Below, piece after piece: positions 22,023 through 54,542 of a DNA stretch of 64,000 bases (its first letter is position 1; every line of letters begins with the position of its first letter). The notes beneath the pieces are model-generated. The model did no database searches. It was given only the letters and a program-made list of their open reading frames with translations, and had not been told where the DNA came from. The translations under genes were made by a program, and so were the position numbers. The DNA comes from a virus, in the IMG/VR virus record IMGVR_UViG_3300018059_000546. One strand, 5' to 3'.

Positions 22023-22544
22023 TCATCGAAAAATCCTCAGATTGTTTCTCATGCCAGTGGACGAAGAAATCGTTGCGCGACCATCGCCCAGGCATGCTGC
22101 AGTGTACAAGGAAGTGAATGGGGCGAGCAAGTGAAATTTATCTTCGTATACCTTTTGATCGGCCATACTCATTTTCGCGCAGGAGATCGTCATTTCATCC
22201 TCGTTGAGGTCGAGCACGTCCAAGTAAATGTACTTGATTCCGACCAGAGAAGATCTGTACAGCATGCTTTCTTCGACGATCGATCCCGGGGCGGGTGCTG
22301 CTGTTCTAATGTTGATGAACCCGTGATCGTCGGGAACTACGGTGTCTTCGATGTCTCCATCCCACGATGGAGAGATCGTACAAGCGAGATCGTACCATAT
22401 GCAATCTTCGCTGGACTCCACTTTCGTTATCTTTGAGATCTTAAAGGCTGTCCGTGGAATGGCGTGTGTACCTCTCTCTGGAGAGAGACGTACCCCTCTC
22501 ATCCGTAAATCGTCGACAGTAAAGAGTTCTTTATACAAGGTCAC
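22023..22544 (-). CDS. hypothetical protein
   Basis: GTGA-coupled to the helicase. Confidence 0.55.
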   Translation of the reverse strand: MTLYKELFTVDDLRMRGVRLSPERGTHAIPRTAFKISKITKVESSEDCIWYDLACTISPSWDGDIEDTVVPDDHGFINIRTAAPAPGSIVEESMLYRSSLVGIKYIYLDVLDLNEDEMTISCAKMSMADQKVYEDKFHLLAPFTSLYTAACLGDGRATISSSTGMRNNLRIFR

Positions 22545-25273
22545 GACTTTAGGGACTTTCGAAAGGATTCAGGAAACATGTCCTTGTTCTTTTCGTAGAA
22601 GTAAGCGAACGATTCGTCGAGGACGTAAGTTGTTGCCCTATCCTCCATGTTACGAATGGACCTTCCGACACCCTGGACCATGGTCCGTGTGGTTTCTAGC
22701 GCGTACCACTTAGAGTCCAGTTGCATGCGTTTCGCGATTACAGCGTCACCCATGTTGGGAAATGGAACTTTGACGAAAATCTGAAAACGAGATAGATCGT
22801 CGACCAAGTCGACTCCTTCTGTCATGGACGGGGACAGCATCACAGATGCATCCTTGCGGGTAGCATGCTCTCTGATCATCTCATCTCTGTCACCGTCGTC
22901 TCTGTACAGAAGACGTGGGTCCTTCACCTGTTCCTTGATGAATCGAGCCACCTTGTGCGAAGTCGCGTGGATGATGCCCTTTTCCCCCTTGTGAAGCTCG
23001 AGCAATCCCTTGACAATTTCGACCATCTTCGGTAAGGTAGAATCAATCTCCGCTCTGTTCATCTTTCCAACGGGAAGGAAATGTACCGGCCTGTTCTCGA
23101 TTGGGAACGGACAGTCGATGTTCATGTATGCCACTTCTTCAGGCTTGAGTCCGATCCACTTGCAAAATGTATCTTTGTCTAGAATGCTAGCAGAGAGCAT
23201 GAGAACGTATTTACCTCGTTCGAAGAGCGTTTCGTGGGAGACGCTATCCACACGAATTGGTTTGAAAGACATCACCTTGCCCGATCGACCGTCCTCCATG
23301 CAGTAGATCCAGTCCTCAGGTTTGTAGCGTTCGACAAATCGGTTGACCCGGCACAAGTGTTTGTCGATTCTGGAGTATCGTTCAGCGTTGTCTCCGAGCT
23401 TGCCCTTCGCAATTTCTCTCTGAAGCTTTAACTTGCCGTTCGCAAGAGCTTTTCTGTAAGGATCTGAGATCCATTCGAACGCTTCTTCTTGGGATGATTC
23501 GAAAGGAATTCGGATTCTGGTCTTTCCAAGCACCGACCGATTGATCTGGTCGGAAATATCGACCGATGCGAACTTAGTCAGCACCCCTTCGGTCGTATGG
23601 CAATTCGAGACCAAGATAGAATTTGCAAAATAGTTGTGATTGTCTTCAACCTCAAGATTATACTTGAAGTGTTCTTTCTTGTCGTCCCAATTACGAACTG
23701 TTTCTACGAAAGAAATTTTTTCTACGACAACATCATGATTTGTTGCAAATTTCTGAAGTTGGAGTCGGCAATATTCTTCATCTGCCTCGAGTTGTTTGTT
23801 CGTGACATAGAGGCATTCGTATCCAATCGCTTCGTATTGTTCTACGACATCTCTAATCTCTTCTTCGGTATGCCAAAAGTATACGTCACCAACTTCAATG
23901 ACCTTATTCGTTCCTTCAACAACAAAATCAGGGTTCTTGTGTTTTCCGTTCTTGAACGTTACCCATTTGCTTCCTAGCCCTGTAAACATAACTTTTGGCA
24001 AATCTAGATCGATAACGAACTGTTCAAGTGAATTTGGTTTGTTTCTTTTCTCGTGGCGAGGAGCTGAGGTCCAGTTTTCGATGATTTTTCGTTTTTCTTC
24101 AGGAGATTTGGCATCCCAATTAGCTTTGATCGAAGCTTTCATTTTTTCGACGCACTTTTCGTCATTCATCGGATTGTTGATCAACATCCTTTGCGAACGT
24201 TTTTCACTAGCTTCTTCAGAAGTGCTGAAGCACTCTTTCGAACAAAATCTTTGATCTATGCTGCTTAGAGTAATACGAATTCTACAAGAACAAGTTGGAC
24301 ATGCTCGATATTCTATCGTTCGACCAAGATGGTAATTCAGAGCTTTTTCTGATGCGAAAGAATGTCTGCAGCAAAGGCACGAAACGTTTAGTTCTGGAAA
24401 TGATTTCTCTACCCGACGTTGCATGTAACTACGCGTCGCATTTTCTTTCTCTAAAACGTCATACTTCAAAACGTCGTCTTTAAGAAGATCATCAGCTCTA
24501 ATGTACCCTCTAGTTTTAGTCCAAATCTTATGATTAGCAGTCACCGTAATAGAGCTCTCTAAACATGCATGAGAAACTTTTATCTTTATCCATTTCGTAG
24601 TCTTGTTGTAGGACGTGCGGATTTTTCGAATTATTCGTTTTCGCTCGTACTTGTCGTCAGTCGAGTTGTAAGACATCACGTGCGTGATGTTCGGATTTTG
24701 CCAGATTTCGTGAACGCATACTTCTTGGTCACCGTCGACCCAAATTTTTGTTTCTGGTCGAAGACACTCGTCTAAGATGAGAAGGTTACGAGGTTCGAGT
24801 TTTCCTGCGTACGTCGTTTCGTTCATGAAGTAGGCGTAGTTCGTAACTCCCAAGGGAGATTCGAGGAACGCTTTTTTGTCCGCAGAATAGGGACATGTTG
24901 CAGCACATTCAGGAGCTCTCATGCAGGCCCGTGCAACCCTACGGGTGACAGCGCAGGTCATCCCAGTATCACACATGTAATTATCAGCGGACTTAAGAGA
25001 ACGTAGACCAATCTTGGCAAAGTCCTTCAAGTACTGAGCTTGCAAGATCTTTTGTGTGGTAAGAACGTAGGCTCCTCCGCCCTGGAGACTGTCGAGAAAT
25101 CTCGACACGGTCACAGCGATAGCACTCTTGCCAATCCCGACGCCCAACTCCCCTAAAACAAACTTTTTCTTTTCATTGATGAATTGATTCAAGGTGAAAT
25201 TAATTGCGATAGCTTGTTCGGGGCGAACTTTTTCAAATGGAAAAAAATCAATCCAATCAGATTCAGTTATCAT
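22541..25273 (-). CDS. DinG/Rad3-like SF2 helicase with intein
   Basis: ELGVGIGKS, DE-[intein]-CH, LSAS, EGVDL, QGVGRSIR. Confidence 0.9.
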   Translation of the reverse strand: MITESDWIDFFPFEKVRPEQAIAINFTLNQFINEKKKFVLGELGVGIGKSAIAVTVSRFLDSLQGGGAYVLTTQKILQAQYLKDFAKIGLRSLKSADNYMCDTGMTCAVTRRVARACMRAPECAATCPYSADKKAFLESPLGVTNYAYFMNETTYAGKLEPRNLLILDECLRPETKIWVDGDQEVCVHEIWQNPNITHVMSYNSTDDKYERKRIIRKIRTSYNKTTKWIKIKVSHACLESSITVTANHKIWTKTRGYIRADDLLKDDVLKYDVLEKENATRSYMQRRVEKSFPELNVSCLCCRHSFASEKALNYHLGRTIEYRACPTCSCRIRITLSSIDQRFCSKECFSTSEEASEKRSQRMLINNPMNDEKCVEKMKASIKANWDAKSPEEKRKIIENWTSAPRHEKRNKPNSLEQFVIDLDLPKVMFTGLGSKWVTFKNGKHKNPDFVVEGTNKVIEVGDVYFWHTEEEIRDVVEQYEAIGYECLYVTNKQLEADEEYCRLQLQKFATNHDVVVEKISFVETVRNWDDKKEHFKYNLEVEDNHNYFANSILVSNCHTTEGVLTKFASVDISDQINRSVLGKTRIRIPFESSQEEAFEWISDPYRKALANGKLKLQREIAKGKLGDNAERYSRIDKHLCRVNRFVERYKPEDWIYCMEDGRSGKVMSFKPIRVDSVSHETLFERGKYVLMLSASILDKDTFCKWIGLKPEEVAYMNIDCPFPIENRPVHFLPVGKMNRAEIDSTLPKMVEIVKGLLELHKGEKGIIHATSHKVARFIKEQVKDPRLLYRDDGDRDEMIREHATRKDASVMLSPSMTEGVDLVDDLSRFQIFVKVPFPNMGDAVIAKRMQLDSKWYALETTRTMVQGVGRSIRNMEDRATTYVLDESFAYFYEKNKDMFPESFRKSLKS
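23603..24766 (-). mobile_element. 388-aa intein with Zn-finger/Vsr-like endonuclease
   Basis: Begins CLRPET; block B TANH; ends YNLEVEDNHNYFANSILVSN|C. Confidence 0.92.
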
Positions 25274-26183
25274 TTTTGAAGTATTCAAATGTTCTTTCAT
25301 CCCAAACGATATCTTTATCCAAACGCGCTTCATCGAACGAAATTTTTGGAAAATCTAGTTCTGTCGCTACACGAAAATTCTTTTCGTTCATATCACAAAA
25401 CACCTTGCCTGCTTTAAATTTCTCAACATTTACAGGAAACTCTAAAGCATAACTCTGTTTGATTTCGTACACACAGTTTTCATCGAGCACCAAAAAATCC
25501 GGCCTGTACGTTCGTTTTTGTCCTTCGCTACCAATGTACGGAATTAAGACCTCGTACGGATGAAAATCTTTACCAATTTCTCTTCCCAGACTTTCTTGGT
25601 ATTTCATGAACGAGTACTCGAGAAGACTTCGAAAGAAAAAAGTTTTGTACCAACCCTTGACGCTTCGTCCACCACGGGCGTAAACTTTCCCGTAAGCGGG
25701 ATTTTTGTCTCCAGATGCAGCAATGGATTTTTTCTGGCGAATTCTTTCAGCTTTTTCGTGTCCGTAAAGTTCGATATTCGTTTTCCCGATGTTTGTTCGA
25801 TTCATATCAGAAAATGTTTTTCTGGCAGCTAGTTTCTGCTTACTCATGTCTGCAGACAGTATCGCTTCAGACATCGTCTTTCGATACTCTGCGTCTTTAG
25901 CGTCCGCGTATTCTCCGCCACCTTTTTCAAGCCAATAATCATAAGTTGATCTGCGTGGATCAAATCCCGTGTGCAATACTCCCACGTGATGTCCCCATTT
26001 CGAAAAACACGACTTAGAACAAAAGCGGGGCTGTTTCTCTCTAAGAAATTCGAAATGTTGTTTACAAAATTCACAATCGAATACGAACAATCTCTTTCTT
26101 GAAGAGAACCTACAAGACTTAGAACAAAATTTGCTGTTCCCATGTTTGGGTGCATAGACTTTAGAACAATATGCGCATGTCAT
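25263..26183 (-). mobile_element. homing endonuclease, TnsA-like PD-(D/E)xK domain
   Basis: Two CxxC..FCSKSC modules; FRSLLE, TYRPDF..YEIK; AT-rich. Confidence 0.8.
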
Positions 26184-49762: not shown

Positions 49763-50500
49763 CTATGATTTGGGAAAATCATTGATTGCCCGCCCTTCAA
49801 AATTCTTTTGCCAGAGAATTTTGACTGTGTACCCTTTCTCAAGAGCAATTGAGTGTCTTTCTAAATCACGTTGCCAAATTTGGTACGCAAACTTCTTTCG
49901 ATATTCGTCCCAAAAATGCCATTGATATATGTCGGGGTTGCAATGCCAGTAATCTCCGTTGATCTCTACGATCAAATTTTGTGACGGGATGAAAACATCA
50001 AAGATGATTCTTCTTTTCTTGCTATCTTTCTCGTAAAAAACTCTATATGAATGAACGGCATCGGGAAATCGTTCAAGTAAAAAATGAAAAATGTACTGTT
50101 CTGTTTGGCTTCTTTTGGGACCAACAACCAATTGGCCATTTCGAATTTTTCTTCGTCTTTCAAGTTCTTCATCTCTACCGATGAAATCGTACCCTTGTTG
50201 TTGAAGTCTTCGACGACTAGCTCGACTCATATTTGCTCGGGCTTCACCAGAAGGAGATTTTCCTTTACCACGAGAGTGACCCAAATTTGCTTTTAGAGCT
50301 CCAGCTTGAAATCGAACCTGCCCACTTCTATGGGCAATTTCTGCATAGAGATTTTTCCCTAGTAGAGAAATTAGAGTTCGTTTTATGATTGCCGGTCCAA
50401 AATCATGATCAGAACACAGTTCTGGAATCACAACACCTGATTGAAAGCGTTCTAACAGGTTCAATGCAAGATCGTTCGGAATAATCTTTTTAGCGATCAT
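49763..50500 (-). mobile_element. homing endonuclease, Vsr/DUF559-like
   Basis: SQTE..FDVFI..VEINGDYWHCNP..RD..KGY.V..LW; AT-rich. Confidence 0.8.
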
Positions 50501-50741
50501 TTCCCAAACCTAGTCGAATTTTAGTTTCGATCCAGTCTCCGTCGAGATCGTTCTGAAACGGAGATGCGTCGAATGGGTTTCCATCTTTCGAACGAACTCG
50601 GACATGTTTTTTATTCAGAGGAGAGGTAACGGCAACCTCAAAAACAAAATCGGGGTGCTCTGCACCATAGTCGTTTACAATCACATCAAATTCTTGATCT
50701 GACAAATCCCGTCGTAGTACATACTCTTTTTGAATTTTCAT
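50490..50741 (-). CDS. hypothetical protein
   Basis: Coupled. Confidence 0.55.
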   Translation of the reverse strand: MKIQKEYVLRRDLSDQEFDVIVNDYGAEHPDFVFEVAVTSPLNKKHVRVRSKDGNPFDASPFQNDLDGDWIETKIRLGLGNDR

Positions 50742-51181
50742 TTTCCCGTCGATCCGAATCCTGAATCACCCCGGTCAGTCTGTTTCAGTTCTCCAATGCA
50801 AATTTCCGGTTGCGCGGTCATGTAAAAGACCATCTGTGCGATACGATCGCCGGCTTTGATGAAATAATCGAGATCCGATCTTGTATTACGAAGCATGACA
50901 ACGAGTTCTCCACGATACCCTGGATCAACGATCCCACCCACAGGATGAATGCCCTTCGCTGCGAGGCCAGAACGACCCTCGATCTTCGGAAAAATGGCCA
51001 TTGCTGACGTAGTGCTCGCTTCGCTGAGAGGGTCGAATCCTCCGTAAGCAATTCCCGTACGAACTTTTGTGACTGTACCTTCGGCAAGGTTGCAATCTTC
51101 TAATGCGTAAAGGTCGTATCCTACGTCAGTCTCGTGGGCCTTGGTGGGAAGCTTTGCTTTCTCACTTAGTAACTTGAACAT
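50738..51181 (-). CDS. dut: trimeric dUTPase
   Basis: GYDL, GRSG, GIVDPGYRGE, GDRIAQ, RGDSGFGSTG. Confidence 0.95.
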   Translation of the reverse strand: MFKLLSEKAKLPTKAHETDVGYDLYALEDCNLAEGTVTKVRTGIAYGGFDPLSEASTTSAMAIFPKIEGRSGLAAKGIHPVGGIVDPGYRGELVVMLRNTRSDLDYFIKAGDRIAQMVFYMTAQPEICIGELKQTDRGDSGFGSTGK

Positions 51182-52127
51182 CGCTCGCATTTTGACTCTC
51201 CAACGCTGCTTTCTTGATGTCTCGTTCCGCTTGTGCTGGAGACTTCACCAACGCAATTTCAAGAAGAAGTTCAAGTTTTTCCTTGTACTTTTCGTCTGTC
51301 CAGAGTTCGTTGAACTTCTCTTTGTAGAACTTCTTTTCATGAGAGAACTTCTCGTCTTCGTGATCCTTCAATGACGTTGCAGTCGTGAAGCTCTTCCATG
51401 CTCCCTTGCCCGAGATTGCCACGAACTCACCGTTAATTTCCTGTGGACCATGAGCGTCGCAATATTCTCTCAGAACGTCGAACATCTCCTCATGGTCTTT
51501 GAGACCAACTCCGAAAATGATTTGAAAACTTGCACGTCTAAAAGGTGCGGCAACTTTGTTTTTGATGAGTTTTGCTTCGACGTTGATGCCGATGAGCTCC
51601 CCGTTCTTTTCAATCTTGCTGCCGCCGATCAGTTGGATCCGAGTCGAAGCATGGAAGGGAATCGCCATACCTCCGGAGGTCGTCGTTGGGTCGCCGTAGA
51701 TTGTATTGTGAGAAAGTATACCATTTGAAAAATAATTGTGATTTTTTTCTACTTCGATATCTAGCACATCCATCATCTCATCGACGAGATGAATGCTCGC
51801 AGCGGTCCATTCTTTTCCGTCGAAGACTTCGAAATTCTTTACATCTAAAAGTGCAGTTGCTTCTACCCAATGCGGTTTTGAACTTTCTATTTTTACATAG
51901 AACGAATGCAACGGAGACACTTTTACTTCAGATTGGGTCGCATTCAAAACGTACTGTTTCGTTGCAGGTTTACGAACTATCTTCAATACGTTCGCGTAAC
52001 AAATTTGTTTTGTTTCAAAATCGAACGATTTTATTTTGAATTTCAGATGTGAAACATCTTTCGGATCGTCATACAACATTTTCGTATAATCGACGTCACA
52101 AAGTTTAAAAAATTCACTAATCTTCAT
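51162..52127 (-). CDS. recA: split-intein C-fragment (141 aa) fused to RecA C-terminal half
   Basis: Block B SPLH; ends DIEVEKNHNYFSNGILSHN|TIYGDPTTTSGG..FHASTRI..KNKVAAPFR. Confidence 0.93.
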   Translation of the reverse strand: MKISEFFKLCDVDYTKMLYDDPKDVSHLKFKIKSFDFETKQICYANVLKIVRKPATKQYVLNATQSEVKVSPLHSFYVKIESSKPHWVEATALLDVKNFEVFDGKEWTAASIHLVDEMMDVLDIEVEKNHNYFSNGILSHNTIYGDPTTTSGGMAIPFHASTRIQLIGGSKIEKNGELIGINVEAKLIKNKVAAPFRRASFQIIFGVGLKDHEEMFDVLREYCDAHGPQEINGEFVAISGKGAWKSFTTATSLKDHEDEKFSHEKKFYKEKFNELWTDEKYKEKLELLLEIALVKSPAQAERDIKKAALESQNASDVQVTK

Positions 52128-53023
52128 TCAATATTTTCCTTTAGTGCAACACGAATTTTAGCAACTAATGCATCTAATTTTTCGTCTGTCAGCCCGCATT
52201 CCCATACAACGTAACGTCGAAATCCTGTTTTTTTAGCTAATTCTCTTTTGGCAAAATCTCGACGCATCATTTTTTTCTGTGTATCATTTATGGGTCCACT
52301 TTTATAAACGTCGGGATTGCAGTGCCAATAATCTCCGTGAACTTCTATCAAAATATTTGTCCCAACAATGTGAACGTCAAAATAGAAAGGTTTCAAAAAA
52401 AACTCTACTTCAAAATCGATATTTTCTCTTCGAAGCCTATCATGCAAAAAACGTTCAGGCTTTGTAGGCGTGCAGAACTTGTATGCATCTGGATTTCGTG
52501 TATTGACAGGAAGCCCTAGTTTGGTTATTAGCGATGCTATAGCTTTTTTCCCATGTCCGACTACACGAGAAATTTCCACAAAGTAAACATGTTGTTTTGC
52601 TAGTTCGATTATCTTACGAATATCATCTGGTTCGAATAAAGAATTGCAATACGGTATCTGCGGTATTTTGCATTTTTCGACGAACAGTTGATTATAGTGG
52701 CGTGATGAAAGTCCAACTTCTTTTCTAATCACGATTGGATTTACACAGCGTAGTTCCCAAAGTTCATCCAATCGATTTAGCTGTTTAGCTGTCAATGCTT
52801 TTCTTTTTGCTGTTTTAGCCTTTGATATTGCCTCGCGTCGTGAAAGTGGAAATACTTTTCCCGTATTGGATTTCGCAATCTTGGCGCATCTGCTAGGTGA
52901 ATGTTTTTTTCCTCGGCGAGATGCACCGTAACATTGTTTACTACAAAATTGTGCCGGCATCGTAACGACCAATACTCCGCAATTTTTACAAGCTATTTGT
53001 AGACGTGTTCGAAGACGACCCAT
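52124..53023 (-). mobile_element. free-standing Vsr/DUF559-like endonuclease between the split recA halves
   Basis: CKNC..FCSKQC, NUMOD3-like repeats, TKPE..FDV..IEVHGDYWHCNP; AT-rich. Confidence 0.85.
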
Positions 53024-53025
53024 TC

Positions 53026-53724
53026 TCAATCTCTGATTATATCTATTTCTGTATCAGGATGTACACACCCGATTTTGTATCGAATCTGGTTCAGGAGGAT
53101 GAAGAGCACGTTGCTACTTCCGATGAGTTGCGTGATTCGACGCATGCCCTTGCTGATCGCACGGGCAGCCTGACCGATTCCGTCCTTGTCGACTTCTGCC
53201 ATGATCTCCGCCTTCGGTGGAGTCGCGGCGACAGAGTCCCAGATGATCGTGACCGGAACGTCCTTATTCGCTTCCTTGACACGGGCGATCGTGCTTTCTA
53301 CGACCTTGAACACGTCTTCGATGCAAGAAGGTTCAGCATAGACGAAGTTCTTACCAACGTCGATACCCAGATCCGAGAGAGTTTCAGGATTGACAGCGTT
53401 TTCCGTGTCGCAGTAAATGACAACTCCGCCCATTCTCTGGGTAGAAATAGCTGCTTGAGTCGCCATGTGCGACTTACCGATCGAAGGAGGTCCAAAGATC
53501 TCAACGATCCTACCTTCGGCGTATCCCCCATTTCGACGATTGCTGATGGCGTAGTCGAGAAGTCGAGAACCCGAAGAGATCCACCTCTTCACGTGGGTGG
53601 GAGAGATATCTGTACCAAGATTCCAAGCGATTCTCGACTGGTGCTCTCTATTCAGAGCGTCGATCAGGTCCTGCGAAAAATCATCATTCGCGTTGTTTTT
53701 TGGTGCATCGCTCTTCTTAGCCAT
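53026..53724 (-). CDS. recA: RecA N-terminal half fused to a 13-aa split-intein N-fragment
   Basis: GPPSIGKS, DTENA, WDSVAA, NQIRYKIG|CVHPDTEIDIIRD-stop. Confidence 0.93.
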   Translation of the reverse strand: MAKKSDAPKNNANDDFSQDLIDALNREHQSRIAWNLGTDISPTHVKRWISSGSRLLDYAISNRRNGGYAEGRIVEIFGPPSIGKSHMATQAAISTQRMGGVVIYCDTENAVNPETLSDLGIDVGKNFVYAEPSCIEDVFKVVESTIARVKEANKDVPVTIIWDSVAATPPKAEIMAEVDKDGIGQAARAISKGMRRITQLIGSSNVLFILLNQIRYKIGCVHPDTEIDIIRD

Positions 53725-53774
53725 TTTTCCTCTTTCGGTCCCCGGATCTTAACCCAGATTCGTCTAGTTGTCCT

Positions 53775-54542
53775 TTAAAATTGGGTCAAAATCTCGTATC
53801 CTGTTGCAGTAACAAGTATGGTATGTTCCCATTGAGCTGACAAAGATCCGTCGACAGTTCTAACTGTCCATTCGTCCGAATCGATTTGTATTTCAGAACT
53901 GCCCACGCATACCATGGGTTCTATTGTAAAAGTCATACCCGGCTGCAATCTCATTCCGGTCCCACGAGTTCCGTGATGGAATACTTGCGGCGGTGTATGG
54001 AATTTTCTTCCGATACCGTGCCCTACGAACTCTCGAACGACGCTGAAACCTTCGCGTTCGACGAACTCTTGGATCGTGGCACCGATATCTCCCAACCTTG
54101 CACCGGGTTTGACCTGCTCAATGCCCATTTGGAGGGCGCGCTCGGCCACCTCGGTGACACGCTGTGCGTCTTTCCCAACCTTGCCGATTAGGAATGTGGC
54201 AGACGTATCTCCGTGAAACTGGTCGTAAATAGATGTCACGTCAACATTGACAAGATCTCCAGATTTCAGCTTGACTTTTCCGGGAATTCCGTGGCACACG
54301 ACGTGATTAATCGACGTGCAACAACTCTTGGGAAATGGCGGAAGAGTTCCGCCCGCTCCCCTGTATCCCAAAGGAGCAGGAATCGCACTTCGACTTAGAG
54401 TGAAGTCGTGAACGAGTGTGTTGATATCGTCCGTCGTCATACCTTCACAGATCGTGCGGCGAACGAGCGAAAGGGTCTCGGCCGCTAAACGACCGGAGAC
54501 CCTCATCGCATCGATTTCTTTCTGAGACTTGATTTCTATCAC
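53775..54542 (-). CDS. map: methionine aminopeptidase type I
   Basis: CTSIN.VVCHGIP, NVDV, HGDTS, GHGIG..FH, TIEPM, AQWEHT. Confidence 0.96.
   Translation of the reverse strand: MIEIKSQKEIDAMRVSGRLAAETLSLVRRTICEGMTTDDINTLVHDFTLSRSAIPAPLGYRGAGGTLPPFPKSCCTSINHVVCHGIPGKVKLKSGDLVNVDVTSIYDQFHGDTSATFLIGKVGKDAQRVTEVAERALQMGIEQVKPGARLGDIGATIQEFVEREGFSVVREFVGHGIGRKFHTPPQVFHHGTRGTGMRLQPGMTFTIEPMVCVGSSEIQIDSDEWTVRTVDGSLSAQWEHTILVTATGYEILTQF

Follow-up and report, generated by a model that had tools for sequence, protein, structure and literature searches.

How does a phage make RecA when its recA gene is broken in two by the gene for an endonuclease? The question is raised by the minus strand of a 64,000-nt stretch of IMG/VR virus record IMGVR_UViG_3300018059_000546 (here called the window), which belongs to an uncultured phage of roughly 350 kb. 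We consider it likely that the fractured recA is rejoined at the protein level, by class-1 trans-splicing of an intein split at the S1 position into an N-terminal fragment (IntN) of only 13 aa and a long C-terminal fragment (IntC), with a homing endonuclease gene in the gap. An earlier interpretation made from the letters and their translations (the sequence-only reading) had proposed the core of this, namely a natural split intein with a 13-aa IntN whose splicing restores the RecA L2 loop, and it is now supported by exteins that are colinear with an intact recA and by an IntC that has the fold of a HINT domain.

Three consecutive minus-strand open reading frames (ORFs; 51162-53724) occupy three separate frames, with the coordinates of their parts given in Table 1. 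By our reading of the sequence the endonuclease ATG, at 53023, lies 2 nt past the RecA-N stop, while the endonuclease TGA shares an ATGA with the ATG of the IntC ORF at 52127. The sequence-only reading had described this AT-rich endonuclease ORF with both of its contacts, as well as a 141-aa IntC with an SPLH block B, a GILSHN end and a Thr at +1, and on re-reading it was correct in these as in all its coordinates and sequences. The insert (IntN, endonuclease gene and IntC) amounts to 1363 nt, of which the gap between the intein halves makes up 901 nt, and it is AT-rich, with a GC fraction of 0.33-0.41 vs. 0.48-0.53 for the exteins. Both flanks are recognizably RecA: the Pfam RecA family matches the N-extein ORF at 3e-34 and the C-extein ORF at 3.1e-15, PHROG 97 (UvsX-like recombinase) matches the N-extein at 3.9e-48, and the C-extein can be aligned to residues 198-277 of Escherichia coli RecA. 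Because Thr142 of the IntC ORF falls at position 201 in the alignment to the E. coli RecA structure, the insertion lies between G200 and V201 (E. coli numbering), within the L2 DNA-binding loop. The residues past the splice point are TIYGDPTTTSGG, starting with Thr+1, and the predicted splice-junction peptide contains KIGTIYGDPTTTSGG.

Searching with RecA-N yielded intact alleles without an intein (P0016, P0018 and P0019, the last on a 348,904-bp contig). The P0016 RecA (locus L024) has 399 aa and is 98% identical over the aligned part; once the 1363-nt insert is removed, the joined exteins of the window come to 1200 nt, exactly colinear with this intact recA. At the junction the empty allele reads Val-Met vs. 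Thr-Ile in the window, so that two residues differ (V to T, M to I). Comparison with the same allele gave 52 synonymous and 0 non-synonymous codon differences for the N-extein (219/219 aa identical; synonymous divergence, dS, 0.47; ratio of non-synonymous to synonymous divergence, dN/dS, 0) and a dN/dS of 0.06 for the C-extein. Both exteins are under strong purifying selection, and since a dead gene would not show such synonymous-only divergence, the fractured recA is most probably not dead. We found no named relatives among cultured phages; the best RecA match there reaches 41% identity, too little for a close isolate.

The IntC-family profile, searched against the PDB, matched the Spl DnaX mini-intein (7cfv) at 1.6e-9, Aes123 PolB1 at 4.5e-9 and gp41-1 at 5.6e-9, and the Pfam intein splicing domain was recognized at residues 111-141 of the IntC ORF. 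AlphaFold2 modelled IntC by itself with a mean predicted local distance difference test score (pLDDT) of 87.2, beginning with a helix (residues 3-9) and ending in some 10 residues of low confidence, as expected if the C-terminal strand has its usual partners in the N-terminal strands that IntC lacks. All significant matches of this model in a Foldseek search of the PDB were inteins (9hth, 2.3e-5), and on profile and predicted fold together IntC is a HINT domain. No catalytic residue is missing, the set being Cys1, S71-x-x-H74 (block B), D123 (block F), H140-N141 (block G) and Thr+1. Among relatives 25-44% identical, S71, H74, D123, H140 and N141 are invariant in our alignment A3 and T142 in alignment A1. 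IntN, whose Cys1 directly follows the RecA KIG, reads C-V-x-x-D-T-x-I-x-I, in agreement with the block A consensus C-[VIL]-x-x-[DE]-[ST]-x-[IV]-x-[ILV], and the same pattern recurs in about 35 relatives. The hallmarks of a class 1 intein in sequence and predicted fold are present: an N-terminal Cys in block A, S-x-x-H, a block F Asp, His-Asn, Thr+1 and the HINT fold.

Contiguous relatives at the same RecA loop (P0007, P0013 and L012) place the break within the intein. Aligned to them, IntN is the homologue of intein residues 1-11 followed by a two-residue tail, and the break lies in a length-variable loop (0-14 residues) between strand beta2 and a conserved ..LF.. helix; alignment to these relatives and to Spl DnaX puts it after intein residue 11-13. 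Judged from these alignments and the IntC model, this is the S1 position, defined as after strand beta2 and before helix alpha1 (PMC13014065), since IntC begins at helix alpha1.

The arrangement is not peculiar to the window. Dozens of relatives in public phage metagenomes (contigs from IMG/VR, ENA, Logan and NCBI) are split at the same S1 place, with IntN of 11-24 residues, and 21 of the 119 best scorable RecA-N homologues are split in this way. They use two sites in the loop. At site A, that of the window (KIG|T.YGDP), IntN has 13-24 residues (17 in L001 and L004; 14 in L006-L008 and L010; 15 in L009; 13 in L026); at the second, seven residues downstream (GDPT/GNPE|TTTGG), it has 11-21 (11 in L013; 13 in L014 and L015; 15 in L025). 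A free-standing endonuclease ORF between same-strand halves is found also in L001, L004, L006-L008, L015 and L026, and the split architecture of L001, L004, L006-L008, L010 and L026 comes with 14-20-nt spacers or overlaps, so that separate genes are present there too. What fills the gap varies: a free gene with the EDxHD catalytic motif in the window, L001, L004, L005-L008 and L026; a GIY-YIG gene in L015 and a GIY-YIG-like frame broken by stops in L014; an endonuclease fused in frame to IntC in L025; a remnant in L009 and L010; and none in L013. Every site-A allele has Thr at +1 where the empty alleles have Val, and therefore the +1 nucleophile travels with the cassette.

Several of these loci have features of their own. 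The L2 region of RecA in L013 (1540-4415) holds two inteins ten residues apart, the first large and contiguous (NQIR|C...THN|CKIG), the second split, with CITPDTLIDIE as its 11-residue IntN and, in place of an endonuclease gene, a gap of about 20 nt from the stop to the following start. In L006 (744-2604), a fractured recA typical in other respects, IS607-like ORFs of 216 aa (TnpA-like) and 414 aa (TnpB-like), as judged by eye from their N-termini, separate the endonuclease gene from IntN; it looks as if additional mobile elements can land in the gap safely. The RecA N-part of L025 (1405-2967) is 88% identical to that of the window, yet its intein is at the other L2 site (GDPT|C), with an IntN of 15 aa and with the EDxHD endonuclease and IntC in one ORF of 520 aa. 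The GIY-YIG-like frame of L014 (2246-3577) aligns over its full length to the intact L015 ORF at 44% identity and has stops under translation table 11; either the endonuclease is decaying or the phage has a reassigned stop codon.

We picture the system as follows. A mobile cassette of 1363 nt would have entered the codons of the RecA L2 DNA-binding loop, leaving two separately translated polypeptides, RecA(1-219)-IntN(13 aa) and IntC(141 aa)-RecA(220-399). Translation of IntC would be coupled to the endonuclease stop through the ATGA, and the endonuclease itself may be read by reinitiation 2 nt past the RecA-N stop; alternatively, a promoter-like site within the IntN codons may serve it. IntN would supply strands beta1-beta2 and the Cys1 nucleophile, dock into IntC and complete the HINT fold, whereupon an N-S shift at Cys1, transesterification to Thr+1, cyclization of Asn141 and an O-N shift would release a 399-aa RecA reading KIG-TIYGDPTTTSGG; RecA would then depend on trans-splicing. 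The EDxHD endonuclease would be the engine of mobility, probably cutting the intein-less recA of relatives that infect the same cell, within or beside the L2 codons, with repair copying the whole cassette and the flanking codons that install Thr+1 in place of the Val-Met of the empty allele.

Table 1. Positions of the recA parts, intein halves, endonuclease gene and promoter-like match in the window
Feature	Position	Strand	Description
RecA-N ORF (N-extein + IntN + stop)	53724..53026	-	232 aa
RecA N-extein	53068..53724	-	219 codons; covers the P-loop ATPase core and stops where loop L2 begins; C-terminal NQIRYKIG
IntN	53026..53067	-	13 codons, CVHPDTEIDIIRD, at 53067..53029; TGA stop at 53028..53026
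Free-standing homing endonuclease gene	52124..53023	-	299 aa; EDxHD/Vsr-like
IntC-RecA-C ORF	52127..51162	-	321 aa
IntC	51705..52127	-	141 residues; SPLH at 71-74; NYFSNGILSHN at 131-141
RecA C-extein	51162..51704	-	Thr+1, then IYGDPTTTSGG; 180 codons + TGA
Sigma-70-like promoter match (putative)	53036..53065	-	TGTACA, 18 nt, TATAAT; 10/12; consensus scan

Several points weigh against trans-splicing. The case for it is built from sequence and fold prediction, and docking is without model support: when the contiguous relative L012 was modelled, its residues 1-12 had a pLDDT below 50, because only three alignment rows cover them. With the closest intein relative at about 43-44% identity, the window lineage lacks a close sister that could show recent selection on IntN. 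The match of the endonuclease profile to E. coli Vsr (1cw0), although it aligns the catalytic stretch, is weak (E = 0.036), and a target in the L2 codons of recA and a role in homing are for this enzyme probable on comparative grounds. A cluster of silent changes would be consistent with immunity of the intein-bearing allele to its own endonuclease, were that enzyme to read the YGDPTT codons: 9 silent or near-silent differences fall in the 24 nt that directly follow the junction (51681-51704 vs. L024:2658-2681), and 2 in the 43 nt upstream; this is suggestive only, since 3.5% of sliding windows reach 9/24. No second recA lies within the 64-kb window, the stretch that the search for one covered; this limited reach lends something to the view that the fractured gene is dead or dying, the endonuclease having broken a mini-intein in a phage that now uses another recombinase or the RecA of its host. 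Homing endonucleases and inteins do decay, as the remnants in L009 and L010 attest. We nonetheless regard such a course as improbable, given the 52 synonymous and 0 non-synonymous differences of the N-extein and the low dN/dS (0.06) of the C-extein, three ORFs that are all open and of full length with intact splicing residues, and a split state kept in many diverged lineages even without the endonuclease (L009 and L013), a persistence after endonuclease loss that argues for its being functional.

A living gene might also do without splicing, if the intein halves served as non-covalent assembly domains that hold the RecA fragments together. There is a precedent in a phage NrdA that is split by a mobile element and whose fragments reportedly assemble through domains derived from the element (PMC3045599), and an IntN this short might bind yet splice poorly. 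Residues needed only for catalysis (Cys1, S/T-x-x-H, the block F Asp, His-Asn and Thr+1) have nevertheless been kept across relatives as little as 25-44% identical, the native Val has been replaced by a Thr nucleophile in all site-A alleles, and without splicing the L2 DNA-binding loop would have to accommodate some 154 inserted residues; we hold this arrangement to be a shade less probable than a dead gene. Least probable of all, to the point of being barely credible, is that the split is not real, because assembly errors have disfigured a contiguous intein with a nested endonuclease or because the 901-nt gap is removed as an intron. The sequence-only reading had itself raised both options (an erroneous stop, and RNA-level removal of 52128-53028) as ways in which it could fail, and one relative, L025, does have its endonuclease fused in frame to IntC. 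Neither option was borne out. NCBI assembly GCA_902725445.1 (a 298,824-bp contig) and Logan assembly SRR7006411 (a 67,688-bp contig) both carry the DNA of 52000-53150 at 100% identity, a stretch reaching from the end of the N-extein through IntN and the endonuclease gene to about codon 42 of IntC, so that three assemblies from different records agree and an assembly error is unlikely; the exact IntC protein is present on seven contigs. Merging the three ORFs into one would require two separate frame corrections, stop-bearing spacers separate the genes in relatives, L009 and L013 keep the stop and the new start without an endonuclease, and the 64-kb window has no tRNA genes and hence no suppressor tRNA able to read TGA. 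As for an intron, removal of the gap as a group I intron or otherwise at the RNA level was rejected: Rfam matched no group I or group II intron in 50500-54500 at E up to 1, and the endonuclease ORF occupies the entire gap between the intein halves, leaving no room for an intron core. Trans-splicing thus stays our preferred reading.

The product of the gene in the gap has a Cys-rich N-terminal segment and a C-terminal catalytic domain with EV-HGDYWH...RD. The ORFs at the same position in L001, L004, L005, L006 and L007 align with it colinearly at 38-39% identity, and E227, D231, H234 and D256 are invariant among seven homologues. PHROG homing-endonuclease families match it at 6e-8 to 6e-4; there was no Pfam match, and the PDB chain of I-Bth0305I gave no direct sequence match at E up to 1. 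From these sequence features the enzyme likely belongs to the Vsr-like EDxHD homing family, in keeping with the Vsr-like endonuclease that the sequence-only reading had placed in the break; the link to Vsr itself is weak by sequence. A Shine-Dalgarno-like AAGGA precedes the ATG of the IntC ORF by 10 nt; the endonuclease gene has no clear Shine-Dalgarno. The putative promoter of Table 1 is contained in the IntN codons and ends 12 nt ahead of the endonuclease ATG, with the Ile-Asp-Ile-Ile codons spelling its -10 box; at the same stringency, none of five related loci gave such a match. We also rejected a regulatory hairpin where the endonuclease gene begins, the fold z-score (+0.84) being no better than that of shuffles.

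A free-standing paralogue of the EDxHD endonuclease (EINGDYWHCNPD; 245 aa, GC 0.37-0.42) is encoded at 49763-50500 (-), between the dUTPase/83-aa ORF and a 5'-3' exonuclease gene. Because the dUTPase gene directly precedes the exonuclease gene in L005 and L025, it looks like a separate intergenic insertion.

The precedent that the sequence-only reading had invoked, of phage genes with an endonuclease between intein halves, goes back to 2009, when Dassa et al. described fractured genes of environmental phages that combine split inteins with a free-standing endonuclease (PMC2677866); it was in such genes that EDxHD homing endonucleases were first found (PMC2677866). The window shares with those cases a phage gene of DNA metabolism present as two same-strand ORFs, each with half of a split intein, a free-standing endonuclease gene between the halves (Vsr-like or GIY-YIG there, probably Vsr-like here), ORFs that overlap or abut, and an insert that appears to carry its own control elements (PMC2677866). 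It differs in its host gene, RecA not being among the eight host enzymes of that study, in which Vsr-like ORFs in recA occurred solely inside group I introns, and in its break after residue 11-13; with the terms searched, no mention of an S1-type break came up in the paper (PMC2677866). The prototype of the EDxHD enzymes, I-Bth0305I, targets the recA L2 coding region, at codons F224-P227 (PMC3239194). It joins an N-terminal DNA-binding part to a catalytic domain of the Vsr-like kind, in which E, D, H and D are conserved, a build that the window enzyme probably shares, and its target is in the same few L2 codons where the window insertion lies; whereas the window enzyme is encoded between intein halves, I-Bth0305I resides in a group I intron within the recA of a Bacillus phage (PMC3239194).

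Natural inteins split at S1 that splice are VidaL, with an IntN of 16 aa (PDB 6VGV), and PolB16 OarG, with one of 15 aa (PMC10189870, PMC13014065), the latter termed 'the shortest characterized' and 'record-short' (PMC10189870, PMC13014065). The range of natural atypical IntNs, given as 15-37 aa as of March 2026 (PMC13014065, PMC10189870), agrees with that given in the sequence-only reading. That reading had placed a 13-aa IntN at or below the natural minimum; the published minimum is indeed undercut, by two residues, at a split position already known, but an IntN of this length is neither unique (L014, L015 and L026 also have 13 aa) nor the shortest in public data (L013 has 11 aa). Like the window intein, VidaL and PolB16 OarG come from phage or metagenomic sources and are split right after strand beta2 into a short IntN and a long IntC, and VidaL also has Cys1; the window differs from both in its 13-aa IntN and its host site, RecA L2, and from PolB16 in having Cys1/Thr+1 vs. 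Ser1/Ser+1. Close kinship with VidaL was rejected, as the VidaL chain matches the family profile at E = 0.78 and ranks 30 by fold. The 'VidaL UvsX-2' intein is a possible relative. An engineered S1 split of the Ssp DnaB mini-intein (M86 variant), at the same structural break position, trans-splices with an IntN of 11 aa (cited in PMC13014065). It is artificial and required directed evolution for good performance, whereas the window split is natural, with relatives of 11-24 aa persisting in many lineages.

With regard to other RecA inteins, the sequence-only reading had equated the insertion point with the mycobacterial RecA-b site, which we take to lie about four residues downstream of the window site. 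The correspondence stands at the level of the loop, L2 being where the M. leprae RecA intein is located (PMC3239194); the comparison covered the loop, with the window site at G200|V201.

The arrangement, a fractured gene with an atypically split intein, was thus already known, and the window adds a case without adding a new principle. For the family as a whole we lean, by a narrow margin, towards a broader claim, taken jointly: that the RecA L2-loop inteins, including the 13-residue IntN with its 11 homologous and two tail residues, have the shortest working natural IntNs (11-13 aa), splicing efficiently with Cys1/Thr+1; that all stages of splitting have been kept, from empty site and contiguous mini-intein to an endonuclease that is free, fused to IntC, decayed or lost; and that hopping has brought one clade to both of two sites separated by seven codons, with Thr+1 installed by co-conversion. 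Protein semisynthesis has a demand for very short natural IntNs, since chemical synthesis can then provide the peptide half, and against a published natural record of 15 (PMC10189870, PMC13014065) the window element and its relatives with 11-13 residues are candidates for peptide ligation with a Cys1/Thr+1 pair, in which natural variation over dozens of alleles could guide engineering. Near-identical recA alleles stand side by side with no intein, with an intein at either L2 site, and with an endonuclease that is free, fused, decayed or absent; because the family shows these states together, the 2009 model of endonuclease entry and intein splitting becomes directly testable. As an evolutionary series this is useful, yet it should not surprise specialists.

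Members of this intein clade (YFSNGILSHN) are found in further phage proteins (L016:3584-3991, L019 and L021). In L016 and L017 the ORF starts at the same S1-like position and continues into an extein that is not RecA; L019 has a contiguous copy after the P-loop (GAGK|C). The window phage has a second intein, contiguous and of about 380 residues, in a DinG/XPD-like helicase ORF of 930 aa at 22541-25333 (-) (Helicase_C_2, 7e-20; Pfam Intein_splicing at residues 200-577). It begins LILDE|CLRPETKIWVDG, directly after the helicase DE motif.

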